DNA from: an uncultured Planctomycetaceae bacterium
Lineage (GTDB): Bacteria; Planctomycetota; Phycisphaerae; UBA1845; UTPLA1
Assembly (NCBI GenBank): GCA_964393935.1
Contig: CAYMXF010000007.1
Span: 1 to 27,314, forward strand
DNA: 27,314 nucleotides
Reading direction: 5' to 3'
In this document: positions 2,382 to 25,817 of the stretch, in pieces
How the letters are laid out: every line of letters starts with the position of its first letter
Position numbering within the stretch: position 1 is the first letter of the stretch
Position numbers and translations under genes: made by a program
The notes under the pieces: generated by a model
Seen by the model: only the letters and a program-made list of their open reading frames with translations
Databases searched by the model: none
Told to the model about the DNA's origin: nothing

Positions 2382-3692
2382 TCACAGGCTGCGAATCACC
2401 TTGCGCAGGATGTCGCACATCTCGTCGACATGCCGTTTCTCGGCAATGAAGGCGGGCGCGACCACGACGGTATCGCCCGGGGCACGAACCAGAAGCCCGG
2501 CCTCGAACGCTTTGCTCAACGCCTCGTGACCGCGCGCCCCAACCTTGTCGGCAGGTGCGAGCTCGATGCCGGCGAGCAGGCCATAGCCGCGGATGTCGTA
2601 GACGATCGGAATGTCGCGCAGGGCGTGTACCTGCTTGAGGAAGTAGGGCGTCAGCTCCTCGGCACGCTCGAACAGGGCGTCCCGCGCGAAGATCTCCAGT
2701 GTTGCGAGCGCGGCGGCACAGGCGACCGGCGAGGCCGAATGGGTGTAGCCGTGAAAAAACTCGATCGACTCCGCCGAGGCGGCGTTGGTGATTGTTTCGT
2801 AGATCTGGTCGCGAACCGCGACCGCGGACATCGGCACGGTGCCGTTGGTTATGGCCTTGGCCATGGTCATGATGTCGGGCGTGACCCCGAAGCTCTGCGC
2901 CGCGAACGCCTTGCCCGTCCGGCCGAACCCAGTTCCGACCTCGTCGAACACGAGCACGATGCCGGTCGCGTCGCAGATCTTGCGGATCCTCTCGAGATAG
3001 CCCTTGGGCGACACCAGCACGCCGGTCGATCCGGCGATCGGCTCGATGAACACGGCCGCGATGCTGTCCGCGCCGAAGGTATCGACGGCGCGCTGCAGGT
3101 CGTCGGCCAGCTCGGCACCGGTCTCGGGTTGGCCGATTGAGAACCTCTGCTCCGGAGTCCAGGTGTGGCGAATGTGGATCACGCCCGGGAGCCCGATTCC
3201 AAAGGTGCGCCGGTTGCGCACCATGCCGCTGATCGACAGCCCGCCGAAGTTGACGCCGTGATAGGCGCGCTCGCGGCCGACGAAGCGCGTGCGTTGCGGC
3301 TCCCCGCGGGCGTGGTGGTAGGCGAGGCAAATCTTCATCGCCGAATCCGTTGCCTCTGAGCCGGAGCACGCGAAGAAGACATGATCGATCGAATCCGGCG
3401 CGAGGCCGGCAATCCGGCGTGCGAGCTCGTAGGATGACGGGTGGCCGAAGGAGAAATGGGGGACGTAGTCCGCCTCCTGCAACTGCTTGAGGATGGCGGT
3501 CTCGATCTCCTTCCGCTTGTGGCCGGCGGAGACGCAGAACAAGCCCGAGCAGCCGTCCATGACGCGCCGCCCGCCCTGGTCCCAGTAGTACATGCCGTCG
3601 GCGCGGATGATCAGCCGCGGATTAGCCTTGAAGCTGCGGTTGGCGGTGAACGGCATCCAGTGGTGTTCGAGCGAATTGGCGAGCTTATGCAT
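2382..3692 (-). CDS. Class III PLP omega-amino acid:pyruvate aminotransferase (beta-alanine/omega-TA type)
   Basis: HWMPFTANR N-terminus, DGCSGLFCV, AYHG, FIEPIAGSTG, FDEVGTGFGRTG, PDIMTMAK (PLP lysine), HGYTHS. GGAGAG RBS upstream. Confidence 0.92.
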   Translation of the reverse strand: MHKLANSLEHHWMPFTANRSFKANPRLIIRADGMYYWDQGGRRVMDGCSGLFCVSAGHKRKEIETAILKQLQEADYVPHFSFGHPSSYELARRIAGLAPDSIDHVFFACSGSEATDSAMKICLAYHHARGEPQRTRFVGRERAYHGVNFGGLSISGMVRNRRTFGIGLPGVIHIRHTWTPEQRFSIGQPETGAELADDLQRAVDTFGADSIAAVFIEPIAGSTGVLVSPKGYLERIRKICDATGIVLVFDEVGTGFGRTGKAFAAQSFGVTPDIMTMAKAITNGTVPMSAVAVRDQIYETITNAASAESIEFFHGYTHSASPVACAAALATLEIFARDALFERAEELTPYFLKQVHALRDIPIVYDIRGYGLLAGIELAPADKVGARGHEALSKAFEAGLLVRAPGDTVVVAPAFIAEKRHVDEMCDILRKVIRSL

Positions 3693-3731
3693 GCCGGCGC
3701 CCTCTCCTGCCCGTCGCTGACCCGATCGGCG

Positions 3732-4706
3732 TCATACGCGGACCGCGCGGACGGCTTGGGCAATCGCTTCCTCGTTCGGCACCACGACCGCCTCGAGGGA
3801 GGGGCTGACCGGAGCCGGTGCCTCCGCGCCGCCGACTCGCTTGATCGGCCCCTTGAGGTACTTGAACGCCAGATCGGCCAGGACCGCCGCGATTTCGCCC
3901 CCCACCCCACCGATCACGTTGGCTTCGTGGACGATGACGGCGCGACCAGTCTTCCTAACCGAACTCACGAGGGTCTTCACGTCGAGGGGTTTGATGGTCC
4001 TGGGATCGACCACCTCGATCGAGATTCCTTCCGCGGCCAGCTTCTCGGCGACCGCGATGGCACGCGGCACCATCGCCCCGAGCGCGATGATCGTCACGTC
4101 CGTTCCTTGGCGCTTCACGTCGGCAACGCCCAAGGGGATCACGTATTCGGTCTCCGGCACGGAACCTTTAAGCGAATAGACCCCTTTCGGCTCGTAAAAG
4201 ATGACGGGGTTGTCGTCGCGCACGGCGGATTTGAGCAAGCCTTTGACGTCGTAGGGGGTCGAGGGCATCACAACCTTGAGACCCGGAAAGTGATTGAAGA
4301 TCGCCTCATTGCTTTGCGACTGCTGTGGCCCGCCGCCGCGGCGGAAACCCGACCAGACACGGCAGACCAGGGGAACTGAAGACTTTCCATCGTAGAAGTA
4401 ATTCATCTTGGCTGCCGTGTTTGCGATCTGATCCATCGCCACCAGGATAACATCGGCCAGCCCGAGCTCGAGGATCGGCCGGAATCCCTTAAGCGCGGCG
4501 CCGACTGCGGCGCCGACGAAGCCACACTCGGAGATCGGGGTTTCGAGAACCCGCTCCGCGCCGAACTCGTCGATAATCCCGATGGTTGTGCCGGTGAGGC
4601 CCCCGAAGCTGCCGACGTCCTCCCCCAACAGGATGACTTTCGGGTCGCGGCGCATCTCTTCGATCATGGCCTCGCGGATCGCGTCTTGGTAGCTGAGGAT
4701 CTTCAT
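3732..4706 (-). CDS. ThDP-dependent 2-oxoacid/acetoin dehydrogenase E1 beta subunit, copy 2 (divergent)
   Basis: LLGEDVG, ETPISECGFVG, DQIANTAAK, VVMPSTPYDVKGLL, DDNPVIFYE, IEVVDPRTIKPLD. PQQSQ stands where the family has xQHSQ. Confidence 0.92.
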   Translation of the reverse strand: MKILSYQDAIREAMIEEMRRDPKVILLGEDVGSFGGLTGTTIGIIDEFGAERVLETPISECGFVGAAVGAALKGFRPILELGLADVILVAMDQIANTAAKMNYFYDGKSSVPLVCRVWSGFRRGGGPQQSQSNEAIFNHFPGLKVVMPSTPYDVKGLLKSAVRDDNPVIFYEPKGVYSLKGSVPETEYVIPLGVADVKRQGTDVTIIALGAMVPRAIAVAEKLAAEGISIEVVDPRTIKPLDVKTLVSSVRKTGRAVIVHEANVIGGVGGEIAAVLADLAFKYLKGPIKRVGGAEAPAPVSPSLEAVVVPNEEAIAQAVRAVRV

Positions 4707-4731
4707 CGGGTGGACTCCGTCCTTCGGCGTT

Positions 4732-5733
4732 TCAGCGATAGACGTTCTCGAGGGCGACCGCGCCCGGGGCGTATGGCGCTGTTTCAGCGAAGTCGACCGC
4801 CGCTCTGACCTCGCTTTGGGCTTCCTTGTCCCACTGCGCCAGCTGGCTCTCGGTCGCGTGCTTGCCCGCGAGCAGGGTCGCTTTGAGCCGAAAGATCGGG
4901 CAACGCGCCTTCCAGCTCGCTATCTCCTCCGGGGTGCGGGCGAATTCGCGCGTCCCGGCGGTCGAATGCGGAGTCCAGCGGTAGGTCTCGCACTCGATCA
5001 ACGTCGGCCCCTCGCCGCGGCGCGCGCGCGCGATCGCTTCTTGCGTCGCGTGATAGACCTTGACCGCGTCGTTGCCATCGACCAGCGGACCAGGAATGCC
5101 GTAGGCGCCGGCGCGGGCGCGAATGCTGCCCCCGGCAGTCGAGGCGGAAACCGGCATCGACTTAGCGTAGAAGTTGTTCTCGCAGAAAAACACGATCGGA
5201 AGCTTCCAGATCGTGGCGAGATTGATGCCCTCGTGGAAGTCGCCACGGTTCACCGCGCCGTCACCAAAGAATGAGATGACGACGTCCGGCTTCTTCTCGA
5301 GCTTGGTTGCCAGCGCGGCGCCGACCGCAAGCGGAATCACCGACCCGACCATCGAGGTGCCGGCAAGGATGCCGAGGTCGGGCGCGCACATGTGATAGAT
5401 CGGAATGCGCCCGCGGGTCGGCGAGTCGGCCTTGGCGTAAAGACCGGCCATGACGTCACGGACCGATATCCCGCGGGCAATAAGCACCCCGAGGCCGCGG
5501 TGCGTGATCATGGTCATGTCGGTCTTAGTGAGGCCGTGGCAGACCCCCGCCGGGATCGCTTCCTGTCCCATGCCGCCATGATAATTGGCGTACTTCCCGG
5601 TTTGGGCGAGTTCGAACGAGACCTCTTCGAATCGCCGGATCAAGACCATCCGGCGGTAGATGGCGACCAGATCCGCGAGCGAGAGAGCGGGCACGGGCTG
5701 TTCCCGCGGCTGGACCTTCGGTGGCGTGCTCAT
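4732..5733 (-). CDS. ThDP-dependent dehydrogenase E1 alpha subunit, copy 2 (divergent)
   Basis: GMGQEA, THRG, GDGAVNRGDFHEGINLATIWKLPIVFFCENN (ThDP/Mg motif), VDGND, GEGPTLIECETYR. Confidence 0.92.
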   Translation of the reverse strand: MSTPPKVQPREQPVPALSLADLVAIYRRMVLIRRFEEVSFELAQTGKYANYHGGMGQEAIPAGVCHGLTKTDMTMITHRGLGVLIARGISVRDVMAGLYAKADSPTRGRIPIYHMCAPDLGILAGTSMVGSVIPLAVGAALATKLEKKPDVVISFFGDGAVNRGDFHEGINLATIWKLPIVFFCENNFYAKSMPVSASTAGGSIRARAGAYGIPGPLVDGNDAVKVYHATQEAIARARRGEGPTLIECETYRWTPHSTAGTREFARTPEEIASWKARCPIFRLKATLLAGKHATESQLAQWDKEAQSEVRAAVDFAETAPYAPGAVALENVYR

Positions 5734-5751
5734 GTTGGGCTCCTCGCGGTT

Positions 5752-6783
5752 CTAGAATTCGCACCCGGCGGCGGGACCCCGGGTCGCGTCCCCGAGGTGC
5801 GGCGTTTGGGGCAGCACCAGCCGGCGCACCGCGTCGGCCAGGATTTTCTGCGGCCGCAGATATACGGACTCCAGCGTCAGGCCGCTTGGGACCGGGATAT
5901 CGGGTGCTGCGACCCGAACCGGCGGTGCGTCCAGCCAGTCGAACGCCTTTTCGACCGCGCGGGCGACGATCTCGGCGCCGAAGCCTGCAGACATGCACGC
6001 CTCGTGACAGACAACTAGGCGCCCGGTCTTCTCGATCGCGCCGATCACGGTGGCGTCGTCGAACGGCACCAGCGTACGCGGATCGACAACCTGACATTCA
6101 ATCCCTTCCGCCGCCAACTCGTCGGCCGCCGCGAGCGCCCAGTGGAGCGCGCGTGACCACGCAACGATGGTGACATCCTTGCCCTCCCGGCGGATCGCGG
6201 CGCGGCCGAGAGGAATGCGATGGTCGCCGTCGGGAACCTCGCCCTTCATCGTGTAAAGCAGCTTGTGCTCCATGAAGACGACCGGATCGTCGTCCTCGAC
6301 CGCGGACAGCAGCAGCCCCTTGGCGTCGGCAGGAGTCGCGGGCATGGCCACCTTCAGGCCTGGGATGTGGGCAAACCACGCCTCGAGGCTTTGCGAATGG
6401 TGCACGCCGTAGCCGAGGCCCGCGCCGCACGTCATGCGTAACACCATCGGCACCGCGGCGCGGCCGCCAGAAGCGTAGCGGAACTTGGCCGCCTGATTGA
6501 AGATCTGATCCCAGCAGGTGCCGACGAAATCGACGAATCCGATCTCCAGGATCGGCCGTGCGCCGACCAAGGCCGCGCCGACGCTCGCGCCGGTGATGGC
6601 GGCCTCCGAGATCGGCGTGTCAAGAACACGGCGAGAACCGAATTCGTCGATCAAACCCTTGGTCACACGGTAGATGCCGCCGTACCGGCCAATGTCCTCG
6701 CCAATCGCGAACACGCGCCGGTCCGAGCTGAGCGCGATCCGGTGCGCGTCGTTCAGAGCCTGGGCGTAGGTCATGACCGTCAT
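5752..6783 (-). CDS. ThDP-dependent dehydrogenase E1 beta subunit, copy 1 (AcoB/PdhB-like)
   Basis: IGEDIG, LDTPISEAAITG, DQIFNQAAK, GVHHSQSLEAW, DDPVVFMEHK. Start overlaps the alpha-1 stop (ATGA, 6780-6783). Confidence 0.93.
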   Translation of the reverse strand: MTVMTYAQALNDAHRIALSSDRRVFAIGEDIGRYGGIYRVTKGLIDEFGSRRVLDTPISEAAITGASVGAALVGARPILEIGFVDFVGTCWDQIFNQAAKFRYASGGRAAVPMVLRMTCGAGLGYGVHHSQSLEAWFAHIPGLKVAMPATPADAKGLLLSAVEDDDPVVFMEHKLLYTMKGEVPDGDHRIPLGRAAIRREGKDVTIVAWSRALHWALAAADELAAEGIECQVVDPRTLVPFDDATVIGAIEKTGRLVVCHEACMSAGFGAEIVARAVEKAFDWLDAPPVRVAAPDIPVPSGLTLESVYLRPQKILADAVRRLVLPQTPHLGDATRGPAAGCEF

Positions 6784-7799
6784 GACGCGGCGGGCCTCGC
6801 GCGGGCGGCCGTGGCCTTGGCGAAGACGTCTTCGAGCGCGGCCTCGGGCGGTGGATAGGGGCTACGCAAGGCGAATGCGGTCGCTTCGCGCACGATCTCG
6901 GCGGTCTGTGCCTTGATACAATCGAGCGCCGGTTGGTCGAGCATCTGGCGGTCGAAGAGCACCTTCTCAAGCCGCTGGATCGGGTCCTTGCTCTTCCACG
7001 CCGCGACCTCCTCTTTCGGCCGGTAGGATTTCGGGTCGCCCTCATAGTGACCGGAAATCCGATAGGTCTTGCACTCGATCAAGGTCGGGCCCTGCCCGGC
7101 GCGGGCCGCGGCGACGGCGGCGGAGGCGGCCTGGTAGACAGCGATCACGTCGTTACCGTCGACGATCTGGGCGGGGATCCGGTAGGCGGCCCCGCGTTCG
7201 GCCACGTGCTCGATCTTCTGCTGGTCGCGGGTGCTGATCGAGATGCCGTACTCGTTGTTCTCGCACACGAACACCACCGGCAGGTCCCAGATCGCGGCGA
7301 GGTTGAGGGATTCGTGAAAGGTGCCCTGGTTGTTCGCACCGTCGCCAAAAATGCACACGGTCACCCAATCGCCCTCCAGGATCCGCTGGCCGAGCGCCGC
7401 GCCGACCGCAAGCGGCAGGCCGGCGCCGACCACGCCGTTGGCGCCGAGGAACCCGACGTCGAGATCAATCAGGTGCATCGAGCCGCCTTTGCCGTGACAG
7501 CAGCCGGTTTGCTTCCCACACAGCTCTGCCAAGAGGGCCCGCGGCTGCCCACCCTTGGCCAGGAAATGGCCGTGGCCGCGATGCGTGCTGGTGATCTTGT
7601 CCTGGGGTTGCAGGGCGGCGCACACCCCGACCGCGACCGCTTCCTCGCCGATCCCGAGGTGGATTAGGCCGGTAATTTGTCCGCGTTTGCACAGCCGGCC
7701 GACCTCGTGGTCGCAGGCGCGCAGGAGATGCATGTTCGCGAGCATCTTAAGGATGGTCTCGCGCGGCGGTAATTCGGACTCTGGGATCGGGGTGGTCAT
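6780..7799 (-). CDS. ThDP-dependent dehydrogenase E1 alpha subunit, copy 1 (AcoA-like)
   Basis: HLGIGEEA, TSTHRGHGH, GKGGSMH, GANGVVG, GDGANNQGTFHESLNLAAIWDLPVVFVCENN, TYRISGHYEGDP. Confidence 0.94.
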   Translation of the reverse strand: MTTPIPESELPPRETILKMLANMHLLRACDHEVGRLCKRGQITGLIHLGIGEEAVAVGVCAALQPQDKITSTHRGHGHFLAKGGQPRALLAELCGKQTGCCHGKGGSMHLIDLDVGFLGANGVVGAGLPLAVGAALGQRILEGDWVTVCIFGDGANNQGTFHESLNLAAIWDLPVVFVCENNEYGISISTRDQQKIEHVAERGAAYRIPAQIVDGNDVIAVYQAASAAVAAARAGQGPTLIECKTYRISGHYEGDPKSYRPKEEVAAWKSKDPIQRLEKVLFDRQMLDQPALDCIKAQTAEIVREATAFALRSPYPPPEAALEDVFAKATAARARPAAS

Positions 7800-7953
7800 G
7801 GTCTCGGTCTCTCAATCGTCCGAACTGCCTCCGTGCTAGTTGTTGCTGCCCTCAAACATCGGCCGGCCGCGGTCAACGGGCCAACCGGCGGGCATTCCGG
7901 TCGATCCCCGGCGCACGTCCCCGGGTCTGCGAAAGTGACCGAAAACGAGTGAT

Positions 7954-8005
7954 TTTGATCGATCAAACAGATTGAATAAGAACATTTTGAAACAATATAT
8001 GTCAA
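7954..8005 (-). promoter_or_regulatory. Putative promoter/operator of the E1-E1-omegaTA operon
   Basis: AT-rich island. Perfect 14-bp palindrome TTTGATCGATCAAA at 7954-7967; minus-strand TTGACA at 8000-8005; TCAAAAT elements. Confidence 0.6.
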
Positions 8006-8284
8006 CCAGATTCGGTAACGATTGCCACGCGGGCGATACTCGCAGTTCTCTCGGCCAAACTTGGTATTCCACAAAACCGCCTGTTTCAGGTTTGTGGCGG
8101 TGCCATGTCATGTTTTAATTTGTTCACATATGATATGAAGCGTGCTAAATTGTTTAACTGCGCCCGCCGAATGCGTGGAACGGATCTCGTTTGGTTGCCG
8201 CCCGGACCGGCCCCAGGCTACGAATCTCGTCCGTGCCACGGCAGGTTCAATCGTGCCAAACCCGAACTGATCAGGACGTATCCC

Positions 8285-9055
8285 GTGATCCAGGCCGCCC
8301 GTCACAAGGAAATCCGCGACATCCTCGACCGCCAGGGCGTGGTGTCAATCTCGGACCTGGCGCGGAAGTTCAGGAAGTGCCCGATCACCATCCGGCGCGA
8401 CTTTTTGATCCTCGAAAGGCAGGGCGTGCTGGTCCGTACACATGGCGGCGCCACGACAACGCCCGATCTTGCCACAGAACCGCCACCCTACGATATCCGG
8501 GAGCGGCTCCACGCCAAGGAGAAGGCTTCGATCGCCAAGAAGGCGGCTGAGTTCATCGCCGAGGGCGATACGCTAATCATCAACGCCGGAACGACGATGC
8601 ACAGGTTGGCGCGCAGTTTGCGCCAGCGGAAGAACCTTCAGGTCGTCACCAACGGCTTGACGGTGGCGATGGAACTCGGCCATTCGCCTGGCACGCAGGT
8701 TCTCATGATCGGGGGCATGGTCGATTTCAAGAAGCTCGGCACCGTCGGACCGCTCGCCGAAGAAACCATCACCAACATGCGCGTCACCAAGGCCTTTCTT
8801 GGGGTGACCGGCGTGTCCCTGGACCATGGCCTGTTCATGCACAGCCCGATGGAAGCCCAGATCAACGCTCTGTTCGTCAAGGCCGCCCGCGAAGTCACCG
8901 TGGTCGTCGATTCAAGCAAGTTCGAGGCGGGAACCTTGTTCCGAGTCGCGCCACTCGACACGATCGATCGGATCATCACCGACAGCCAGATCCAGCCGGA
9001 AACTCGCCGCGCGCTCGACAAAATGGGACTGGAAGTCGTGATCGTCCCGGCGTAG
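8285..9055 (+). CDS. DeoR/GlpR family transcriptional regulator (copy 1)
   Basis: Likely start is GTG 8285, not 8105. IQAARHKEIRDIL...TIRRDF..LE..G...RTHGGA wHTH; INAGTT, VVTNG, GG...GTVGP, KAFLG, DSSKF sensor domain. Divergent from the E1 operon. Confidence 0.93.
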   Translation: MIQAARHKEIRDILDRQGVVSISDLARKFRKCPITIRRDFLILERQGVLVRTHGGATTTPDLATEPPPYDIRERLHAKEKASIAKKAAEFIAEGDTLIINAGTTMHRLARSLRQRKNLQVVTNGLTVAMELGHSPGTQVLMIGGMVDFKKLGTVGPLAEETITNMRVTKAFLGVTGVSLDHGLFMHSPMEAQINALFVKAAREVTVVVDSSKFEAGTLFRVAPLDTIDRIITDSQIQPETRRALDKMGLEVVIVPA

Positions 9056-9205
9056 CACGCCTTCCTGGATGATCATCGCCCCTCGCACCGCCTACAATCT
9101 ACCCTGAACCGGCCCTTCACGACGTACGCTGCAAGGCTGCCGAGACCGCGGTGCGGTTTCTTGGGCCGCAGTGAGCTTCGTAAGCGCATTGTCTGACGGG
9201 GCGAC

Positions 9206-10573: not shown

Positions 10574-10612
10574 GATCGGTTCCGGTTTTTGCGCGGACGC
10601 ACCGTCCGGGGA

Positions 10613-11479: not shown

Positions 11480-11554
11480 CCGGACTCCTCAATATCGGCT
11501 CGTGGCGTGAGATTCACCGGCAACGAAATGTGACAGCCCGGCGTCCGAGATACT

Positions 11555-14862: not shown

Positions 14863-14900
14863 CAGCGGTCGCCACGACTCGTGCACGATGGAGCCACCCT

Positions 14901-16589: not shown

Positions 16590-16674
16590 GGCATCCGCGC
16601 ACGAATGGCGCGATCGCGCTCGCACCTGGAAGGCCGCCCGCGTTGGCCCGGGTTAGTGACGTGTCGGCAGTTTG

Positions 16675-16710
16675 TTGACGCGGGACAAAATTTATCATAA
16701 ATATTCAAAA
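16675..16710 (+). promoter_or_regulatory. Putative promoter of the aldehyde dehydrogenase gene
   Basis: TTGACG (16675-16680) followed by AT-rich CATAAAT and TTCAAAAAT; layout resembles the 12427 site. Confidence 0.45.
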
Positions 16711-16802
16711 ATGCTCATTGCTCAGACGCGAGCCACGCGCCCCGGACGTCGTGGGAGCAAGATCGCCTGGGTGCCGCGTCCCAAGGATGGAGAATAACGC
16801 CA

Positions 16803-18242: not shown

Positions 18243-18299
18243 GCGGCGGCGCCGGCGCGCCCGCCTGTGATCCCGGTCCTCGGGCACGACGCCCGAAGC

Positions 18300-19097
18300 C
18301 TACCGAACGTGCGCGATCACGACCTCCAAACCCAGTTTCTGCAGCGCCTGCCTGACGTCGCGATTGAGTTTGTTGTCCGTCACGATTCTCTTTATTTCAG
18401 TCAGCTTGGCCACTGGGAAAAGGAAATTCGCCTCGAACGGATCGGAGAAGTTGACCTCGAACTTGCTTGAATCGGCAACCACGGTGACTTCTTTCGCCGC
18501 GCGCAGGAACCGGCGATTGATCTCGGCCTCGAGCGGGCTGTGCACAGAGATTCCACGTTCGATCGAGACCGCCAGAACTCCGAGGAACGCTTTCGGCACC
18601 TGGATTCCCTGCATCATCTTCTCGGCTAGCGGGCCGATCGTCGCGAGCTCCTTCGAGTCGACCGCGCCGCCGATCAGAAGTACCTGAGAGTCGGGCGCGT
18701 TCGAAATCTCTATCGCAACGGCCAGGCCGTTGGTAACCACCTTCAGGTTTTTCACGTTCTTGAGCTGGTGCGCCAGCACGCGCATGGTCGTGCCTGCGTT
18801 GATGATCAAGCTGTCGCCATCCTGTATGTATTCGGCCGCTTTTTGCGCGATCGACAGTTTCTCCGCGTAGTATTCTTTCTCGCGGACCTCGTAAGGCGAC
18901 ATCAACTTGTCCGGCGTGACCAGGGCGACAGCGCCGCCGTGCGTACGGACGAGATGGCCGCCGCTGTCCAGCATAGCCAGATCCCTCCGGATCGTGACCG
19001 CGGAAATGCTCAACTTCTCGGCAAGATCCGCGATGGAAACGACACCGTCCTTATTGAGCAGGGATTTAATCTTGTTGTGGCGGGCGGCCCGGATCAT
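18300..19097 (-). CDS. DeoR/GlpR family transcriptional regulator (copy 2, paralog of 8285..9055)
   Basis: Likely start ATG 19097 (MIRAARHNKIKSLL). TIRRDL, RTHGGA, INAGTTM, VVTNGLAVA, KAFLG, HSPLEAEIN, DSSKFE. Confidence 0.93.
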   Translation of the reverse strand: MIRAARHNKIKSLLNKDGVVSIADLAEKLSISAVTIRRDLAMLDSGGHLVRTHGGAVALVTPDKLMSPYEVREKEYYAEKLSIAQKAAEYIQDGDSLIINAGTTMRVLAHQLKNVKNLKVVTNGLAVAIEISNAPDSQVLLIGGAVDSKELATIGPLAEKMMQGIQVPKAFLGVLAVSIERGISVHSPLEAEINRRFLRAAKEVTVVADSSKFEVNFSDPFEANFLFPVAKLTEIKRIVTDNKLNRDVRQALQKLGLEVVIAHVR

Positions 19098-19290
19098 GTG
19101 TTTTGGGTTTGATCGTCTGTTCACAGTCCGGGGTCCGTGACGATTATGCGGGCTGGGGGAAGGTGCCAACCAAGAACGGCATCGCTGGCGAGCGAACACA
19201 ATACAATAAAAGCAAGTGTATCATCAGGGTGGCTTGCCGGACACCCCAAAATTTTCTCCGACGCGCTCTCAGCCCTGACCGAGTCGGCAT

Positions 19291-19330
19291 CGCCGCCCGG
19301 AGATATCAGATCGGCATCTTCCGGGCGGTG
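19291..19330. repeat. GC-rich inverted repeat (hairpin)
   Basis: CGCCGCCCGGA (19291-19301) pairs with TCCGGGCGGTG (19320-19330) with one G-T pair. Confidence 0.5.
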
Positions 19331-19589
19331 AGGCTGGAGCACGCGGGAATCGTTCGGGCGGGGCAAGTTCAAAGCACGGCTCGCACATCCTCAAGATGGA
19401 TATGGAAGGCGACAATCTCCCGCGGGCGACCTGAAAGACGGCGGCCGAGCCCGGTTACAACCATCGGGCCCGCCCGCCCGACGAGGAGTCACCGCCGCCC
19501 ACGCGGCGGGACGATCCGCCAGTCTGGAATACCTTGCGGCGTTCCGTCACCGCCGATGTCGTTGATACCCAGAACCGACGACCGCCTGC

Positions 19590-19629
19590 CGGACCCGCAC
19601 AGGCCTTATTCAAATTCCGTGCGGGTCCG
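19590..19629 (-). terminator. Stem-loop just downstream of the class IV aminotransferase stop
   Basis: Perfect 11-bp stem CGGACCCGCAC (19590-19600) / GTGCGGGTCCG (19619-19629). No T tract, so the terminator role is uncertain. Confidence 0.45.
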
Positions 19630-19645
19630 TGTTGCTGGCAATACC

Positions 19646-20584
19646 CTATTGGGCGGCCACGACGCGTGGCTTGAGGTTGATTCCAGCCACCCGGCGCGCC
19701 TGTTCGTGGACGTCGAACCCGGCCATTTTGCTGAAAGCGTCCGCGATCCGCTGGACCATCGGCCCAGGCACATCCTTGCAGCCGATCGGTTCCCCGTTCA
19801 GGCGCGACGCCGGCACCAAGCACCAGCTGGTCGAGCAGAGGAATGCCTCGTCGCAGTTGTAAAGGTCGTAAATCTGGATATCTCGCTCGACATACGGGAT
19901 GCCCTGCGCCCTGGCGATTTCTTTGATGGTCCGCTCCGTAATCCCCTCAAGCCGGCCGGTCAACAGAGGCACGTGAATCTCTCCGTTCTTGACCACGCCG
20001 ATACTCGACGACCGGTTCTCTGCGACATTCCCGTCCAGGTCAAGCATCACGCACCAAGCGTCCGGGTCGACCTGATAGACCTCGATGTCGGCGAGTGTAT
20101 GGGTGATGCGGCTCGTGGTCTTGATTTTGGCGTCCCACACCTGTGGCGGCTGACGCCGCGTGGACGCGACCACGAGATGCACCCCGGTGTCGATGAACCG
20201 TGCGAATTCCTTGAAGTTGAGGTCCTTGCACGCGATGTGCACCTCACACGGCCCCGCTTTCATGGGGTGGCCGCCGGGTCCACGTGAAACGTAGTGATAG
20301 ACGAAGAATTCCGGGATTTCCTTGAGCCGAGGCGCATTCCGCTGGACTGCTTCTTCGGTGATCTTCAGCATCTGCTCTGGGCTCAACTTGGGATCCATGC
20401 GCAACGGCTTCATCGACCGGTAGAGACGATCGATATGCTCGCGCGTCTTGAACAGCTTGCCGTTGAACGTTCGGGTTGCCTCGTATACCGCGTCGCCGAG
20501 CGTAAAGCCGCGATTCCAGATCGAAACCTTGGCCTCGCTTTCCGGCACCCATTGTCCATTCTGATAGGCAATCTTTTCAGCCAT
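19646..20584 (-). CDS. Class IV PLP aminotransferase (BCAT/D-amino-acid/R-amine transaminase superfamily)
   Basis: NGQWVPESEAKVSIWNRGFTLGDAVYEATRTF, HIDRLYRS, AKIKTT (PLP lysine), LEGITERTI, DEAFLCST, PGPMVQRI. GAGGAG RBS. Confidence 0.9.
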   Translation of the reverse strand: MAEKIAYQNGQWVPESEAKVSIWNRGFTLGDAVYEATRTFNGKLFKTREHIDRLYRSMKPLRMDPKLSPEQMLKITEEAVQRNAPRLKEIPEFFVYHYVSRGPGGHPMKAGPCEVHIACKDLNFKEFARFIDTGVHLVVASTRRQPPQVWDAKIKTTSRITHTLADIEVYQVDPDAWCVMLDLDGNVAENRSSSIGVVKNGEIHVPLLTGRLEGITERTIKEIARAQGIPYVERDIQIYDLYNCDEAFLCSTSWCLVPASRLNGEPIGCKDVPGPMVQRIADAFSKMAGFDVHEQARRVAGINLKPRVVAAQ

Positions 20585-20670
20585 GCGTTCCTCCTCAGTT
20601 TCCGAAAATCAAAACACGTGACGAGACCGGGCTGCGCCGACCCCGCTTTTGCCGCGCGCGGCGGCGTCAT

Positions 20671-21714
20671 TCAGCTGCGCGCGGCCTCGCCGGATAAGGG
20701 CACCGGCATGTTCATGTCCTTCATGTTGAGCAGGCCTGGAAGAGCATCGCGCACACGCGGTATCGAATTGACCAGGATCGCGACCGTTCCGATGTCGCCG
20801 TTCACGCCCCCCAAGAACTTTGCATGAAGATTCGGCCTTCCTTCAAGCTCGACCGAATCGTACGGCTCCTCGACGTTAGCGTGGGCAATAAAATCCAGGG
20901 TTACCAGCACCTTGCCGTTCTTCCTCGCCTCGGCGACGCTTCTCAGGCCGGCCACCTGTCCCGGCCTGACGGTCGTCAGGACCTCATTCTTCGTGTGGTC
21001 GGTGTAGGTGGTGACTTCGGATTCGCAGATTACAGGCTCGACCGGAAGCTCGCGAATATCGTCCACGTCGAGTCCGAGGCCGTCAACGATCATCGCCGCC
21101 GACTCGATCAGTCCGACGTGGCCGGTGATAACCTTCTCCTTGATCAGGCGCAGAAATTCCTTTTTCTCCATCCCTGTGCCGATCTTCTTCTGGAACGAGG
21201 GCCGGCGCGTCCTTGAATACATCACCCGCATCACCTTGACGCGCTTTACTTCCAGGCAAATACCCGAAATCAGCAGCGGAAACTTGTCCATCAAGAAGCC
21301 CGGGTTGATGCCCGTGGCAAGGATGGTTATGCCGTTCTGCTTGCAGACTTTGTTGATCTCCTCCGCAAGCTTGCGCTGCTTGAAATAGGGAAAGGAAAGC
21401 TCCTCGCAGCTCGTGATTACGTCCAACCCGGCACGCGCGCATGCCTTGAGCTGGGGCGTGATCTTTTCCAGGTTCGAAGAGGTCATATGGATGACGATGT
21501 CGGCCTTGCTTTTAGCAAGCACGCCGGTCGCGTCGTCGGTAATGGTGACGAAGGCCTTGCGCTCCGCGCGGACGACTTCGCCGAGATCCTTGCCGACATT
21601 GGCGAGATCGATCGCACCGACGATGTCGATTTGACCCTGATTCAGAATGAACCTGGCAACGTTCTTTCCAAGCGATCCAATTCCATACAAAATTGCTCTT
21701 GTCTTCTTCTTCAT
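20671..21714 (-). CDS. NAD(P)-dependent oxidoreductase, 2,4-diaminopentanoate dehydrogenase (Ord)/native amine dehydrogenase/DapB-N-like family
   Basis: Likely start ATG 21714 (MKKKTRAILYGIGSLG, Rossmann). DVITSCEEL, TGINPGFLMD, KKIGTG, GHVGL, GGVNGDIGT, NSIPRV...PGLL. Confidence 0.78.
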   Translation of the reverse strand: MKKKTRAILYGIGSLGKNVARFILNQGQIDIVGAIDLANVGKDLGEVVRAERKAFVTITDDATGVLAKSKADIVIHMTSSNLEKITPQLKACARAGLDVITSCEELSFPYFKQRKLAEEINKVCKQNGITILATGINPGFLMDKFPLLISGICLEVKRVKVMRVMYSRTRRPSFQKKIGTGMEKKEFLRLIKEKVITGHVGLIESAAMIVDGLGLDVDDIRELPVEPVICESEVTTYTDHTKNEVLTTVRPGQVAGLRSVAEARKNGKVLVTLDFIAHANVEEPYDSVELEGRPNLHAKFLGGVNGDIGTVAILVNSIPRVRDALPGLLNMKDMNMPVPLSGEAARS

Positions 21715-21883
21715 CAGGGTCTCCTCGCGCCAGCAACTGGACCAAAACGAATCGAACACGTCGCGACGGTGGACCTCATCCGGCGCGCGCCCGGCGGGGG
21801 GTGGGGTAGGGTAACAGCCCGTTGCCGTCTTTCGCTGCGGATCGCGATCCGAGCGCAAGGTCAACCATGATCGGTAATGGCAT

Positions 21884-21911
21884 ATTTTGATCGATATAGT
21901 CAATATCAAAA
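21884..21911 (-). promoter_or_regulatory. Putative promoter/operator of the dehydrogenase-aminotransferase operon
   Basis: Minus-strand TTGACT (21898-21903). Inverted TTTTGAT (21885-21891) / ATCAAAA (21905-21911). Closely resembles 7984-8005. Confidence 0.55.
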
Positions 21912-22050
21912 GCGGACCGGCGCAATCCCGGCTTGGGCTCGAATCTGCCGGTTAGAGAGAGCCTCGTCCAGTATGACTCGCCGACAGATGGCGTCCCGGT
22001 TGCTTGGTGACCGACGCGGCCGCTGCCGATTATGAACCATTTATCGTATA

Positions 22051-22081
22051 TCGTTGACAATCAACGAACCACAATTACTAT
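22051..22081 (+). promoter_or_regulatory. sigma70 promoter with overlapping palindromic operator upstream of the GntR gene
   Basis: TTGACA (22054-22059), 16 nt spacer, TACTAT (22076-22081). Inverted repeat TCGTTGA-CAA-TCAACGA (22051-22067) covers the -35 element. Confidence 0.7.
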
Positions 22082-22112
22082 GCCGTCGGCACCTTAAAAT
22101 CCAGGGTTCCTT

Positions 22113-22805
22113 GTGAATACGCTGAAAATCGTCCAATCGAATTCACTGTCGACGCTGGTGCAGGAAGAGATCACCCGGATGATCCTCGCGGGTGAAATTG
22201 CGACCGGCGAATGGCTGAACGAATCCGCGTTTTCCCAGCGTTTCGGTGTATCACGCGGACCGGTGCGCGAAGCGCTTCGGTCGTTGCAGGAATCCGGATT
22301 GGTCCGGCAGGAGAAGAATCGCGGCGTATTTGTGCGCGAGCTCACCGTCGCCGAGGCGGATCAGATCTACGAGGTCAGGGAAGCCTTGGACGAGCTCATC
22401 GGCAAAAGGGTGGCGGCCGCCGCATCGAAGGCACAGATCGGGAAACTGCGAGAGTTGGTCGAGAAGATGGACCAATCGGTCCGCAGCGACGATTTGCACC
22501 GGTATTATCTCGATAATCTGAAGTTTCACGATCTGCTCGCCAACCTCAGCGGCAATGCGAAGCTGATGTTAGCTTACCGGCGGCTGATCAACGAGCTTCA
22601 CCTGTTCCGGTTGCACGGGCTTGCCCAATTCGGCGGCTTGCGAACCTCGAACGAGGAACACCACGCGCTTCTGAAGGCGATCGAGACGAAGAACCCCGAG
22701 GCCGCCGGCCGATTGCTGAAGGCGCATGTCGTGGCGAGCCGCCGTCGCATGCATAAAGCGTTGGCGGCGCGACCGTTAGAATCAGAGCGCTGCTCCGCCG
22801 GATAG
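22113..22805 (+). CDS. GntR (FCD) regulator, phosphonate-utilisation-associated type
   Basis: GTG start. QSNSLSTLVQEEITRMILAGE...LNES...GVSRGPVREA...GLVRQEKNRGVFVRE...EADQIYEVR, FHDLL. Matches the PhnR-like GntR clade found beside AEP operons, as recalled. Confidence 0.88.
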   Translation: MNTLKIVQSNSLSTLVQEEITRMILAGEIATGEWLNESAFSQRFGVSRGPVREALRSLQESGLVRQEKNRGVFVRELTVAEADQIYEVREALDELIGKRVAAAASKAQIGKLRELVEKMDQSVRSDDLHRYYLDNLKFHDLLANLSGNAKLMLAYRRLINELHLFRLHGLAQFGGLRTSNEEHHALLKAIETKNPEAAGRLLKAHVVASRRRMHKALAARPLESERCSAG

Positions 22806-22957
22806 GGAATCGACCACGCATATCAGCCAAGTCACAGGGATCGCCTGATCCCAACCAACGAAGAAGACCGGAATGCTGTTGGGTGGCACCTCCGGTCATC
22901 GATGGAGAAGTTCTAGTTCCAGTCATCAGTTGTGTTACGTGAGGGGAAGAAAAGCAA

Positions 22958-24103
22958 ATGGCCGCAAGCACGAAACGTAGAATCCTGATCGTGATGATGG
23001 ACGGGTTCGACCCCGCTTATCTGCAGGCGAGTGACATGCCGAACACCAAGCAGATGACCGCCAGCGGGTTCTACAAGACCGTCAAAGGTGTGATGCCCAG
23101 CGTGACGAACGTGAACAACACCGGCATATGCTGTGGCTGCCCGCCCTCGCAACACGGCATCACGGCGAATTCCTATTTCGATCTGCAGACGCAGAAAGAA
23201 GAATACATGGACAAGGCGGCAATGGTGCTTGCCCCCACGATATTCGAGCGCGGCGCGCCGCTTGGATTCAAGTCGGCCCTCTTGACCGCGAAAAAGAAGA
23301 CCCAGTCGTTGCTACGAACTGGCGCTACAATCCGGCTGGCGGCAGAGGCGCCGAAGGACGCCGAGGGATCCAACATCGATTGGATCGGCCGGCTCGGTCC
23401 GGCCCCCGATATCTACTCGCTCGAAATCAATCTGTGGCTGTTCCGGGCGGCACAGATCGTCTTGAACGAGACAGATACCAATCTCGTTTACTTCCATACG
23501 ACCGACTATCCCATGCACATGGAGCCGCCTTGGGGCGAGAAATCGCTGTTCCACCTGAGTCAGTTGGACAAGCTGCTTGGCGAAACACTCAACGCGCATC
23601 CCAAGCTGGAAATCTACATGTCCGCCGACCATGGGATGAACTTCAAATCGCGCTGCTACGACTTGAACAAGGTTGTGCCGAATAAGGGCGCAGAAATCTT
23701 CTTCGCGATGTCTGCGGAACGCGATCCCTATGTGAAGCATCATCGGAACTTCGGTGGCACGGCGTTCGTGTGGCTGCGGCGCCCGGGCGATTTCGATCGC
23801 GTGGCGGACATCTGCCGTCGGCTGGACGGCGTGGAGGCCGTCTACGACCGCTACACGGCTGCGTCCAAATACCTCCTGCACCCCGATCGCATCGGCGACA
23901 TGCTGGTTATGGGCGACTTCAACACGGTCTTCGGTCCGCTCGAAGGCAAGGAGGGCATCGAGGAAATGGCGAAAGGCTTCCGGACGCACGGCGGCAGCGA
24001 TGAGGCGATCGCGCCGCTGATCATCTACAACCGGGCAGTCGATCCCCGGCTGTGGCATGAAATCCGCTACAACTTCGATCTGACCAAGCCGATCGGCTTC
24101 TAG
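22958..24103 (+). CDS. phnA: Phosphonoacetate hydrolase-like protein (alkaline phosphatase superfamily)
   Basis: MMDG, PSVTNVNN (Thr nucleophile; canonical PSFTNPNN), TTDYPMH, SADHGM, DPYVKHH, DRIGD, RTHGG. All dinuclear-metal ligand motifs are present. Confidence 0.8.
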   Translation: MAASTKRRILIVMMDGFDPAYLQASDMPNTKQMTASGFYKTVKGVMPSVTNVNNTGICCGCPPSQHGITANSYFDLQTQKEEYMDKAAMVLAPTIFERGAPLGFKSALLTAKKKTQSLLRTGATIRLAAEAPKDAEGSNIDWIGRLGPAPDIYSLEINLWLFRAAQIVLNETDTNLVYFHTTDYPMHMEPPWGEKSLFHLSQLDKLLGETLNAHPKLEIYMSADHGMNFKSRCYDLNKVVPNKGAEIFFAMSAERDPYVKHHRNFGGTAFVWLRRPGDFDRVADICRRLDGVEAVYDRYTAASKYLLHPDRIGDMLVMGDFNTVFGPLEGKEGIEEMAKGFRTHGGSDEAIAPLIIYNRAVDPRLWHEIRYNFDLTKPIGF

Positions 24104-24122
24104 CGGAGCGTCAATCAGCCCT

Positions 24123-25817
24123 ATGAGCACGATCGACGAAAAACCGATCTCCGTATCATTGCTCACGGGCTTTTTGGGCAGCGGTAAGACGACGCTGCTC
24201 AATCACCTGCTCGCGCATCCGGATATGGATAAGACGGCGGTGCTGATCAACGAGTTCGGCGAGATCGGACTTGACCACTTGATTGTCGGAAGGCTCGACG
24301 AGGACGTCGTGCTGCTGAAGTCCGGCTGCATCTGCTGCACCGTGCAAGGGCAGCTGGTCGACGGGCTGAAAGAGCTTTACGTCAAGCGGCTGGCTGGGCA
24401 GACTCCGGCCTTCACGCGGCTTGTGATCGAAACGACCGGGCTCGCCGATCCGTTGCCGATCGTTGACTGCCTGATGCGCGACCCACTTTTCAGGCGGGTC
24501 TATCGGCTGGACACGGTGGTGACGACGGTGGACGCGGTCTACGGCGGGGGCCAGCTTGATATGCACCGGGAGGCTATCCACCAGGCGGCGATCGCCGACA
24601 ACATCGTTATCACCAAGGACGATATCTCCGACAAGGCACGGATCGGTTCGCTGCGGGAGCGGCTAAGTCGCCTCAATCCAGGTGCCAAGATTATTTCCGC
24701 GCAATTCGGCCAGGTAACTCCGGGTGAGTTGTTCGGCAGCGGATTCTTCGATCTGCAGCAGAAATTTCTCGACATGCGGAAATGGTTCGGCACCGCGGAG
24801 CATAGCGGTCAGTCGGCGAATACCCACGATCAGCACGGCGCGCATGATCACGTCCAGGAGGATCACGGCCATGCCGGGCGCGCGCACGAGGAGCACGAGC
24901 ATGTGGATGTGAACCGGCATGACGAGCGCATCGCTTCATTCTGCATCGTGCTGGATGAGGCGGTATCGTGGGAGGCCTTTACCCGCTGGTACGACGATCT
25001 TGCCGAGAAAAAGGCCGATCATCTGTTGCGGGTGAAAGGCATCCTCAACGTGGAGAACACACCGACCCCGGTATTTGTGCATTGTGTGCAATCCACCCAA
25101 CATGACCCGACGCTGCTGCCATCCTGGCCCGACGACGACCATCGCTCGCGCATCGTGTTCATCACCCGCGATTTGGCGCGCGGCGAGGTGGAAGCCAATC
25201 TGCGTGCGCGGCTGGCAGCAGCGCGAACCGATAGCGGGTCCAACAGGGCGCATGGCACGCCGACTTTTGTCCAACCTCCCGGCGCGAGCCGCTGGCTGAA
25301 CCAGGCGGAGCTGAGCCGGTTGTTCGCCGCGTTGCTGCTGCAAAATGACCGCTTCGCCGTCGACGTTTTGCGGTTGATGCTGCTTACTGGCGTGGATAGC
25401 GAGGCGACACGTCTAGCACGGTGGGAGGATTTCGACATCGACCAGCATTTGTGGCTGTTGCCGCATGCGGCTGCAACGAAGCCCGGTGTCGGCGCGCGCG
25501 CGCGCCGCATCTCGCTTCATTCCACGGCGCTGACACTGCTGGCCGGCTTGCGGCAACGAGGCACGAGCAGAGGTTATCTGTTCGGCGGTTCGAAGCCCGA
25601 GACCTCGGCCGAGCGGCTGGACCGTGCGTGGAAGACCGCAACCGAACAGGCCAAGATCCAAAGGATTGCCCTGACCGAACTGCAACCCACGCTTGCGATC
25701 GACGTGTTTGCCGGACTTGCGCCGACGTTGGTACGTGTACTGCTTGGACTCGCCAGCCAAGCAGCACCTAAAGTGGCATTGTCTGTACCGAAAACGTCGG
25801 CCGATTTGACTCGCTGA
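24123..25817 (+). CDS. COG0523/CobW-family (G3E) metal-binding GTPase fused to a catalytically substituted tyrosine-recombinase-like C-terminal domain
   Basis: TGFLGSGKTT, INEFGEIGLD, GCICC, IETTGLADP, ITK.D, His-rich linker, LRVKG and RIVFI (CobW_C). From about 25290 integrase-like LMLLTG...ARWEDFD...W.LP...TK...R.I.L...YLF...RAW...LLG. Confidence 0.85.
   Translation: MSTIDEKPISVSLLTGFLGSGKTTLLNHLLAHPDMDKTAVLINEFGEIGLDHLIVGRLDEDVVLLKSGCICCTVQGQLVDGLKELYVKRLAGQTPAFTRLVIETTGLADPLPIVDCLMRDPLFRRVYRLDTVVTTVDAVYGGGQLDMHREAIHQAAIADNIVITKDDISDKARIGSLRERLSRLNPGAKIISAQFGQVTPGELFGSGFFDLQQKFLDMRKWFGTAEHSGQSANTHDQHGAHDHVQEDHGHAGRAHEEHEHVDVNRHDERIASFCIVLDEAVSWEAFTRWYDDLAEKKADHLLRVKGILNVENTPTPVFVHCVQSTQHDPTLLPSWPDDDHRSRIVFITRDLARGEVEANLRARLAAARTDSGSNRAHGTPTFVQPPGASRWLNQAELSRLFAALLLQNDRFAVDVLRLMLLTGVDSEATRLARWEDFDIDQHLWLLPHAAATKPGVGARARRISLHSTALTLLAGLRQRGTSRGYLFGGSKPETSAERLDRAWKTATEQAKIQRIALTELQPTLAIDVFAGLAPTLVRVLLGLASQAAPKVALSVPKTSADLTR

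Follow-up and report, generated by a model that had tools for sequence, protein, structure and literature searches.

A candidate organophosphonate catabolic island combining a tandem thiamine-dependent E1 unit with relatives of PhnY and PhnA

A gene cluster that carries a phosphonate-type importer and relatives of PhnY and PhnA, with no phnW beside them, raises the question of which organophosphonates it consumes and by which steps they reach the hydrolase. Such a cluster occupies positions 2382-25817 of contig CAYMXF010000007.1 (assembly GCA_964393935.1; contig C7 in our labels), of which we analysed positions 1-27,314 of the forward strand, a stretch of 27,314 nt that is referred to here as the window. 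The original prediction, made from the sequence of the window, read the cluster as a known PhnY and PhnA back end fitted with a replacement front end. A gap-free gene map was obtained from the listing of open reading frames (ORFs) and from Pfam and NCBIfam scans (Table 1), with the start codons of the DUF1989, first DeoR, fold-type III, Ord-like and second DeoR genes shifted inward to fit the lengths of their orthologs. All genes named in the prediction were found on this map together with two DeoR regulators that it had left unmentioned, and its statement that the window holds no phnW, phnX, C-P lyase, PEP-mutase or PalA-type, or HD-oxygenase genes was borne out by the profile scans. We consider it likely that the region is an organophosphonate catabolic island whose accessory genes are functionally linked and which draws phosphorus from an amino-phosphonate. 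To the scheme in which recurrent modules lead, by way of a carbon-carbon cleavage, from import to phosphate release, we assign as a whole a probability of about 0.55.

Recurrence of the gene set

The neighbourhood analysis was anchored on the PhnA-like protein, on the DUF1989 protein and on homologues of the substrate-binding protein (SBP) and of the alpha subunit of the second E1 pair (E1-alpha-2). At least five other metagenomic contigs were found to hold parts of the gene set at 66-88% identity and in shuffled order. Contig L120 has the gene order of the window. In L040, the importer genes U2-T2-S2 are divergent from a same-strand block formed by the DUF1989 gene, E1-alpha-1, E1-beta-1, E1-alpha-2, E1-beta-2 and an omega-aminotransferase (omega-TA) gene, which is followed by a gene for an enzyme resembling D-serine dehydratase (DSD-like) and by trpA-trpB. 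L123 presents PhnA-like-U2-T2-S2, then DUF1989-EamA, a DeoR gene, the two E1 pairs with the omega-TA gene, the DSD-like gene and trpAB. According to its gene calls, a 15.5-kb contig from ERZ23498363 (named by this accession below) carries a DUF1989 gene, a run of S2, T2, U2, aldehyde dehydrogenase (ALDH), Phosphodiest (380 aa) and CobW genes, a gene for a 265-aa DeoR protein and an Aminotran_4 gene (312 aa). L041 combines canonical PhnY (861 bits, cut-off 636), PhnA (562, cut-off 408) and PhnR (293, cut-off 271.5) and an amidase with S2-T2-U2-DUF1989. The two E1 pairs, the omega-TA gene and the DSD-like gene recur as a group, orthologs of the omega-TA (71-81% identity, downstream of the E1 genes) and of the DSD-like enzyme (75%) being present in L040, L120 and L123. 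Since gene content is kept although the order is repeatedly shuffled, this pattern is the signature of selection for a common function. The accessory genes thus do co-occur with phn genes elsewhere, the point on which the original prediction had staked itself, and the idea survives.

The importer assignment of that prediction, PhnS2T2U2 type, stands for the ATPase and the permease, which exceed their cut-offs, and narrowly fails for the SBP. The SBP belongs to a separate clade at identities of at least 62%, and its solved relatives bind organophosphates and not iron (AfuA, 4r72, sugar phosphate; P5PA, 6wce, pyridoxal phosphate). When the genome collection was scanned with it, only relatives of at most 50% identity were returned, and these carry transporter genes alone. 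Within the recurring gene set, the DUF1989 gene always adjoins the transporter; the orthologs next to the SBP gene in L040, L041, L121 and L123 are 80-81% identical, that of L120 is 68% identical, and that of ERZ23498363 was recognised by Pfam only. In four contigs, the transporter and the DUF1989 gene stand together with a PhnY/PhnA-type pair, which is canonical in L041. In a metagenome scan with the DUF1989 protein, only the two matches at 81% identity (L040, L041) carry phn genes, and none were seen at the other 78 loci, all of which are below 60% identity. We also observed that the amidase-signature enzyme of L041 (L041:4420-5856, 478 aa) lies between PhnR and the S2T2U2-DUF1989 genes, which may point to a phosphonate substrate that is N-acylated or bears an amide.

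The ALDH gene starts 213 nt after the importer genes. Its product falls short of the PhnY cut-off that the L041 protein exceeds, and its nearest solved structure is PhnY itself (4i3t, 403 bits), the next being a non-phosphorylating glyceraldehyde-3-phosphate dehydrogenase (GAPN, 336 bits). In the phosphonate pocket, the motifs PFNH, GQRC and PGYR...PFGG of 4i3t are changed to PFNR, GQAC-R and PQHD...PFGG, while EVGR is retained. The PhnA-like protein likewise fails the PhnA cut-off, which canonical examples pass with 561-577 bits, and the PhnA enzymes 1ei6 and 3szy are its sole PDB matches (E < 1e-5). Alignment with these two structures matched DG, PSxTNxNN with the Thr nucleophile, the lysines of TAKxK, TTDYxxH, ADHGM and HGG throughout, motifs that include the di-metal ligands and the paired lysines of the PhnA active site. 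The predicted PhnY and PhnA are therefore what their nearest solved relatives indicate at the level of subfamilies only: judged by these scores and alignments, the two proteins belong to distinct subfamilies within the PhnY and PhnA branches. The PhnA-like clade comprises more than 100 metagenomic clusters at 50-88% identity.

Around PhnA-like homologues at 77-86% identity (L033-L039) lie orthologues of the ALDH, CobW, GntR and EamA genes. Thus, ALDH orthologs (65-79% identity) adjoin a PhnA-like gene in L033, L034, L035 and L039, those of the GntR regulator (61-68%) do so in L033, L036 and L037, and CobW orthologs (46-58%) follow PhnA-like genes in L033-L036. No amine or E1 genes surround the homologues in L033-L039, which carry D-2-hydroxyacid dehydrogenases and a Rieske oxygenase with its reductase instead; a PhnZ/TmpB-like HD oxygenase (193 bits, cut-off 215) is also found in L039. 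Because these contigs keep the ALDH, PhnA-like and CobW genes beside other front-end genes, the three genes constitute a portable terminal module that is used with alternative front ends. Of the known back end with a new front end, the PhnY/PhnA-type pair is indeed present, but the back end belongs to this distinct clade. The GntR regulator, predicted to be of the phosphonate type, narrowly misses the cut-off of the phnR_burk model. The EamA protein (relatives at 36-41% identity in L034, L039 and L123) is not of the phn_DUF6 family. As separate observations, the C-terminal extension of the GTPase (about 200 aa) is without a Pfam match while the orthologues of L034 and L035 show Phage_integrase matches (faint in L034), and L036 and L039, as well as L033-L035, hold Rieske oxygenases of 505-510 aa, a DmmA-like reductase, LysR regulators and D-2-hydroxyacid dehydrogenases.

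The double E1 unit and its distant versions

On the minus strand, the genes for E1-alpha-1, E1-beta-1, E1-alpha-2, E1-beta-2 and the omega-TA make up an operon with this order of transcription, divergent from the first DeoR gene. The best solved structure for E1-alpha-1 is the human pyruvate dehydrogenase (PDH) E1 alpha. Orthologs of E1-beta-1 were found at 60-79% identity and those of E1-beta-2 at 68-88% (L040, L120, L122, L123, L124), and the E1-alpha-2 clade comprises about 42 metagenomic clusters at identities of at least 60%. In our alignment of the E1 proteins (A1), pair 2 displays HRGLGV where pair 1 has HRG/AHGH, and YRWTPHSTAG where pair 1 has YR-x-x-GHYEGD. These pair-2-specific motifs are kept across the window, L040 and L122, and the thiamine diphosphate (ThDP) motif and the histidine of the alpha subunit are invariant. 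Since the motifs of its own are conserved while the ThDP motif and the histidine are invariant, pair 2 appears from the alignment to be specialised rather than decaying.

Genes for E2 and E3 are absent from the window beside the two E1 pairs; among the distant versions, L122 and L124 have an E2. The SBP of L122 is 52-55% identical, and its importer lies in one operon with all four E1 genes, in the order given above, and with a PDH-type E2 (477 bits, cut-off 445). L122 also holds divergent genes for a 2-hydroxyacid dehydrogenase and an EamA protein, a DeoR regulator and a Na/Pi-PhoU gene, and within 10 kb there is no ALDH or PhnA gene. In the congeneric genomes G061, G064 and G065, a DeoR gene stands next to the four E1 genes (60-70% identity), which are followed by a transketolase, a 2-hydroxyacid dehydrogenase, a 3-hydroxyacyl-CoA dehydrogenase and E2. 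A few kb downstream, PhnC and two PhnE proteins exceed their equivalog cut-offs, and a PhnD-like SBP passes only the cut-off of the broader phosphate/phosphite/phosphonate SBP subfamily; further downstream there are an MFS transporter, a second 2-hydroxyacid dehydrogenase, a second transketolase, a PhnX-like HAD hydrolase and genes resembling PhoU and Pi transporters. No PhnA, PhnA-like or PhnY genes were found in these three genomes. The pattern is complementary: PhnY and PhnA were not found in the genomes with E2, and the versions that lack E2 carry an ALDH with a PhnA or PhnA-like hydrolase.

Orthologs of the first DeoR regulator (49-76% identity) adjoin the double E1 in L120, L122, L123, L124, L133 and L134, and the double-E1 unit is tied to phosphonate importers and to three types of C-P hydrolase, namely PhnA, PhnA-like and PhnX-like. 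The DeoR gene and the double-E1 unit are the oldest and most deeply conserved core of the system. Since this core also occurs without the amine enzymes, a thiamine-dependent core whose entry and exit enzymes can be exchanged describes the system better than does a PhnY/PhnA pathway fitted with a new front end. In a genus whose genomes measure 2.5 Mb, a region of about 25 kb (L143, G061:C13:48000-61000, together with L124) combines the sets described above, and has the look of a separate phosphonate catabolic cluster that is as yet undescribed.

Proposed route and competing explanations

The omega-TA passes the AptA equivalog cut-off (NF052567). The DSD-like enzyme has 3gwq as its top PDB match (349 bits) and matches D-threonine aldolases weakly, the class IV aminotransferase (class IV TA) matches archaeal branched-chain aminotransferases (BCATs) and then (R)-amine transaminases, and the Ord-like enzyme matches 7xdu and the amine dehydrogenase structures 6g1h and 6g1m. 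Hydrolytic C-P cleavage requires a carbonyl beta to phosphorus, as in the chemistry of PhnX, PhnA and PalA. Starting from the gene identities, the modular recurrence and the association with phosphonate genes reported above, we propose the following substrate class, order of steps and E1 reaction. An importer of the AfuA family and PhnS2T2U2 type would bring in a small amino- and/or hydroxy-substituted phosphonate, and the DUF1989 protein, whose relatives hydrolyse or rearrange C-N and N-O groups, would probably act early on a nitrogen-containing group. The conversion of C-N to C=O would fall in the window to the omega-TA and possibly to the class IV TA, the Ord-like and the DSD-like enzyme as well, and the last of these, which resembles D-threonine aldolases, could also free an aldehyde by retro-aldol cleavage; in the distant versions the oxo group would derive from an alcohol via 2-hydroxyacid dehydrogenases. 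The tandem E1 pairs, working without E2, would next cut a C-C bond of the oxo-phosphonate and so shorten it to an aldehyde resembling phosphonoacetaldehyde, either through decarboxylation of a 2-oxo acid of the phosphonopyruvate type or through an acetoin-type ketol cleavage. All three exit modules would act on a compound of the phosphonoacetaldehyde type, and to provide this aldehyde from a larger oxo-phosphonate would be the simplest role of the ThDP-dependent E1s and of the transketolases in the distant versions. Finally, the ALDH would oxidise the aldehyde to a phosphonoacetate-like acid, and the PhnA-like di-metal hydrolase would cut its C-P bond to give a carboxylic acid and phosphate, the co-transcribed COG0523 GTPase probably assisting metallation by supplying zinc.

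The modules would be governed by the two DeoR regulators and the PhnR-like GntR regulator. An operator shared by the DeoR regulators, which had also been suggested, was not substantiated: TTCAAAAT occurs twice against 0.54 expected occurrences, 9 of 100 shuffles reach this count, and the regulon claim is unsupported. The palindrome TTGATCGATCAA was rejected as a DeoR operator as well, with one exact site and with two-mismatch matches that are mostly intragenic.

Several points weigh against the C-C-cleavage scheme. The solved relatives of the SBP take phosphate esters and not phosphonates, and E1 enzymes without E2 are poor at making aldehydes in known systems. With the ALDH and the hydrolase missing their family cut-offs and the ALDH pocket differing, intermediates other than phosphonoacetaldehyde and phosphonoacetate may be involved. 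Moreover, in G062 and G063 PhnA-like copies coexist with canonical PhnA (561-577 bits), which argues for a different substrate of the PhnA-like protein. To the DUF1989 protein of the window no pathway step or established role can be assigned: only at the level of the Pfam domain does it reach a threshold, with 109 bits on the Tdm model (cut-off 1100) and 93 on UAAP2 (cut-off 285), and neither look-alikes nor PDB nor literature led beyond 'urea carboxylase-associated' and Tdm or to any connection with phosphonates. The predicted linkage of the accessory genes to phn genes, which holds for those recurring with the transporter clade in at least five contigs, does not extend to the Ord-like gene, for which no recurrence was seen in related contigs, and reaches the class IV TA gene in one other contig only (ERZ23498363, after the DeoR gene, recognised by Pfam family and length). 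A trpBA flank is common to the window, L040 and L123, and most supporting contigs represent one lineage and not independent acquisitions.

Part of this evidence would be accommodated by a plain 2-aminoethylphosphonate (AEP) route in which the AptA-type omega-TA replaces PhnW, the variant ALDH and the PhnA-like protein carry out the canonical PhnY and PhnA steps, and the E1 pairs and the DUF1989, DSD-like, class IV TA and Ord-like proteins serve other nitrogen or carbon catabolism, sharing only neighbourhood and regulators. AptA-type enzymes use beta-amino acids, and beta-alanine has its phosphonate analogue in AEP; phnW is missing from window and assembly, the same transporter stands beside canonical PhnY and PhnA in L041, and DUF1989 relatives elsewhere are without phn genes. 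Nevertheless, we regard this route as unlikely, because in L040 and L123 the DUF1989 gene, both E1 pairs and the omega-TA gene are packed closely on one strand and diverge from the transporter, the E1 genes of L122 lie inside the transporter operon, the double E1 of another genus is found beside PhnCDE and a PhnX-like gene, and the conservation of content despite the shuffled order points to one function. That the substrate is instead an amino-organophosphate ester, such as phosphoethanolamine or a serine/ethanolamine phosphodiester, is quite unlikely in our view, given that no solved structures other than PhnA enzymes are related to the hydrolase at E < 1e-5, that PhnT2 and PhnU2 exceed equivalog cut-offs, that in L041 canonical PhnY, PhnA and PhnR accompany the orthologous transporter, that a PhnZ-like oxygenase occurs in L039 and PhnCDE with a PhnX-like gene by the double E1, and that phosphate release from esters needs no such pathway. 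A transaminase would in that case yield phosphoglycolaldehyde, the GAPN/PhnY-like ALDH would turn it into phosphoglycolate, and the PhnA-like protein would be a phosphatase or phosphodiesterase. Such a reading fits the sugar phosphates and pyridoxal phosphate bound by the solved SBP relatives, the phosphate esters that DeoR regulators usually sense, the GAPNs as next-best structures of the ALDH, and a hydrolase that lies far under the PhnA cut-off, matches Pfam Phosphodiest and coexists with true PhnA.

A further possibility is that the double E1, and pair 2 in particular, itself cleaves the C-P bond of acylphosphonates, the analogues of 2-oxo acids: ThDP would add to the carbonyl, the phosphonyl group would leave instead of CO2, and the acyl group would pass to E2 and CoA or be released as an aldehyde, while transaminases, dehydrogenases and dehydratases would funnel 1-amino- and 1-hydroxy-alkylphosphonates (analogues of alanine, serine and lactate) to acylphosphonates. 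If true, ThDP-dependent C-P cleavage would be a fifth and mechanistically new way to break a carbon-phosphorus bond. Its attractions are that the pyruvate dehydrogenase type is seen both in E1 pair 1 and in the E2 of L122, that the active-site motifs of pair 2 are non-canonical yet conserved, that L122 offers no further C-P enzyme in its surrounding 10 kb, that all front-end enzymes have relatives of the alanine, serine and lactate type (class IV TA, D-Ser-dehydratase-like enzyme, D-2-hydroxyacid dehydrogenases), and that PbfF shows pfam02826 enzymes to be capable of oxidising 1-hydroxyphosphonates (PMC12366243). We judge it very unlikely, since acetylphosphonates are known as stable E1 inhibitors (PMC4741878) and no role would be left for the PhnY-like ALDH with its cationic pocket or for the PhnA-like hydrolase, although these enzymes or a PhnX-like one accompany the system in the window, in ERZ23498363, L123, L041 and G061. 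Least credible of all is a mosaic of unrelated operons that were joined by rearrangement or insertion sequences and share no pathway. The fall in G+C content from about 0.65 (1-8 kb) to 0.56-0.62 rightward, the transposase at the right end and the transporter remnant at the left, the non-significance of the shared operator motif and the absence of the island from 60 relatives of the assembly would all suit a mosaic, but the same content is found in at least five other contigs in a different order, and distant versions keep the transporter joined to the double E1 (L122).

Genomic context and relation to known systems

The assembly is a bin of 660 contigs with 87% completeness and 6.6% contamination. 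It holds a second trpB (G000:C257:3280-4221) that resembles the trpB genes of congeners; the TrpB of the window is 62% identical to this copy, 62-64% to same-genus TrpB proteins and 69-70% to those of L040 and L123. In addition, the PhnA-like and E1-alpha-2 genes are absent from all 60 relatives of the assembly that were searched. Given the second, congener-like trpB and this absence of the island, the sequence comparisons suggest that contig C7 is probably mis-binned, and whole-genome absences therefore carry little weight. This applies to the search for phnW that had been proposed with the original prediction: no phnW, phnX, phnJ (C-P lyase), PEP-mutase-fold or PalA-type, or HD-oxygenase gene exceeds its cut-off anywhere in the assembly (best phnW match 102 bits, cut-off 400.8), a weak negative for a probably mis-binned contig in an 87% complete assembly. 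Along the window, the G+C content is 0.64-0.66 over the part with trpB, the E1 genes and the omega-TA gene (1-8000) and 0.56-0.62 where the transporter, ALDH and PhnA-like genes lie (8000-27,314), which is compatible with modules of different origin. No riboswitches or other RNA families reached the gathering threshold in the window. The PALP gene at its left end was rejected as a pathway member, being trpB, and the MFS remnant between trpB and the island suggests a rearrangement scar. The 394-aa ORF opposite the class IV TA gene is most likely a spurious shadow ORF of high-G+C DNA.

Table 1. Genes and flanking features of the window, with positions, strand and the profile matches on which the assignments are based (scores in bits, cut-off after "vs").
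Feature	Positions	Strand	Basis and remarks
trpB (flank)	3-998	-	TIGR00263 521 vs 392; cut by contig end
MFS transporter remnant	1179-1982	-	N-terminally truncated; matches MFS_1 profile positions 119-338 only
Class III omega-TA, AptA type	2382-3692	-	Aminotran_3; NF052567 607.2 vs 500
E1-beta-2 (E1 beta subunit, pair 2)	3732-4706	-	Transket_pyr + Transketolase_C; PRK09212 340 vs 321
E1-alpha-2 (E1 alpha subunit, pair 2)	4732-5733	-	E1_dh; PDH_E1_alph_y 272 vs 394
E1-beta-1 (E1 beta subunit, pair 1)	5752-6783	-	PRK09212 352 vs 321
E1-alpha-1 (E1 alpha subunit, pair 1), PDH-like	6780-7799	-	PDH_E1_alph_y 355 vs 394
DeoR-family regulator 1	8285-9055 (likely start; ORF opens 8105)	+	HTH_DeoR + DeoRC
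Fold-type III pyridoxal-phosphate enzyme, D-serine dehydratase/D-threonine aldolase-like (DSD-like)	9272-10573 (ORF from 9206)	+	D-ser_dehydrat + Ala_racemase_N
EamA-family membrane protein	10613-11479	-	EamA; phn_DUF6 84 vs 288
DUF1989 protein, 204 aa	11555-12169	-	PF09347, E = 6.5e-49
PhnS2-like SBP	12560-13627	+	TIGR03261 379.6 vs 392.75; just below cut-off
PhnT2 ATPase	13750-14862	+	TIGR03265 490.7 vs 457.7; passes
PhnU2 permease	14901-16589	+	TIGR03262 721 vs 593; passes
PhnY-clade ALDH, variant	16803-18242	+	TIGR03250 531.2 vs 635.65
DeoR-family regulator 2	18300-19097	-	HTH_DeoR + DeoRC
ORF, 394 aa (most likely spurious)	19103-20287	+	No Pfam match; overlaps class IV TA gene on opposite strand
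Class IV TA (BCAT / D-amino-acid / R-amine type)	19646-20584	-	Aminotran_4
Ord-like / native amine-dehydrogenase-like NAD(P) enzyme	20671-21714	-	DAP_DH_C + DapB_N; ornith_Ord 255 vs 400
GntR/FCD regulator, PhnR-like	22113-22805	+	phnR_burk (TIGR03338) 264 vs 271.5; narrow miss
PhnA-like alkaline-phosphatase-superfamily hydrolase, ~380 aa	22958-24103	+	TIGR02335 187.1 vs 407.55; Phosphodiest
COG0523/CobW GTPase with long C-terminal extension	24123-25817	+	cobW + CobW_C; 19 nt after PhnA-like gene
IS3/IS481-type transposase (flank)	25842-26858	+	rve_3; weak matches NF033516, NF033577

Among known systems, the PhnW-PhnY-PhnA route for AEP of the Sinorhizobium meliloti type, with PhnR and PhnS2T2U2, resembles the island in the type of importer, in a GntR/FCD regulator near phnR_burk, in an ALDH nearest to PhnY and in a hydrolase whose only solved relatives are PhnA. 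The island differs from it in having no PhnW, in the sub-cut-off ALDH and hydrolase with changed pocket motifs, in the attached COG0523 GTPase and in ten extra enzyme genes. Ancillary enzymes are known to feed AEP clusters (PbfA, PbfB-D, PbfF, PbfG; PMC8154272, PMC12366243, PMC13576164). The logic is the same, extra enzymes in hydrolytic clusters converting related phosphonates to phosphonoacetaldehyde, and the pfam02826 dehydrogenases in clusters related to the island are reminiscent of PbfF; in contrast, the two E1 alpha/beta pairs, the DUF1989 protein, the AptA-type and class IV TAs, the Ord-like and the fold-type III enzyme belong to families undescribed as Pbf. The E1 proteins share domains, the ThDP motif and their best matches (PDH E1 alpha and beta) with the alpha2beta2 ThDP-dependent E1 of pyruvate and acetoin dehydrogenases (PdhAB, AcoAB), from which the island is set apart by two non-identical tandem pairs, the lack of E2 and E3, the changed motifs of pair 2 and the context of phosphonate transport and C-P hydrolysis. 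If the E1 substrate were phosphonopyruvate, the net step to phosphonoacetaldehyde would equal that of Ppd, and the amino compound would be phosphonoalanine, as in the PalB/PalA route; Ppd, however, is a different ThDP family, and no gene of the PalA/PEP-mutase fold is present in the island. With the DUF1989 enzymes CgdAB (carboxyguanidine deiminase) and the N-terminal domain of the trimethylamine N-oxide demethylase (Tdm), the island protein shares the Pfam domain, and its matches also include the Tdm and urea-amidolyase-associated models as well as PDB entries 3oru and 9q59, but it lies far under the equivalog cut-offs and its clade (80% identity) goes with an importer of the phosphonate type.

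A full-text search of the literature returned no description of E1, thiamine, transketolase, DUF1989 or the PhnA-like clade in phosphonate catabolism, searches on the degradation of phosphonoalanine, acetylphosphonate and 1-aminoethylphosphonate brought up no account of such a system, and a 2023 review of phosphonate degradation names no thiamine enzyme. No prior description of the island was found, and it extends a known kind of system, hydrolytic phosphonate catabolism. Organic phosphorus includes a large phosphonate pool, and few catabolic entry enzymes are known for it. Three undescribed elements are indicated by the island and its relatives: the tandem double E1, the importer-locked DUF1989 protein, and the PhnA-like/PhnY-like/COG0523 clade, which is large and is now annotated automatically as 'phosphonoacetate hydrolase'. 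The island genes are a defined, clonable set for substrate discovery. If the proposed scheme is true, hydrolytic phosphonate catabolism would reach longer or differently substituted natural phosphonates, and gene-based estimates of phosphonate turnover in metagenomes would improve.

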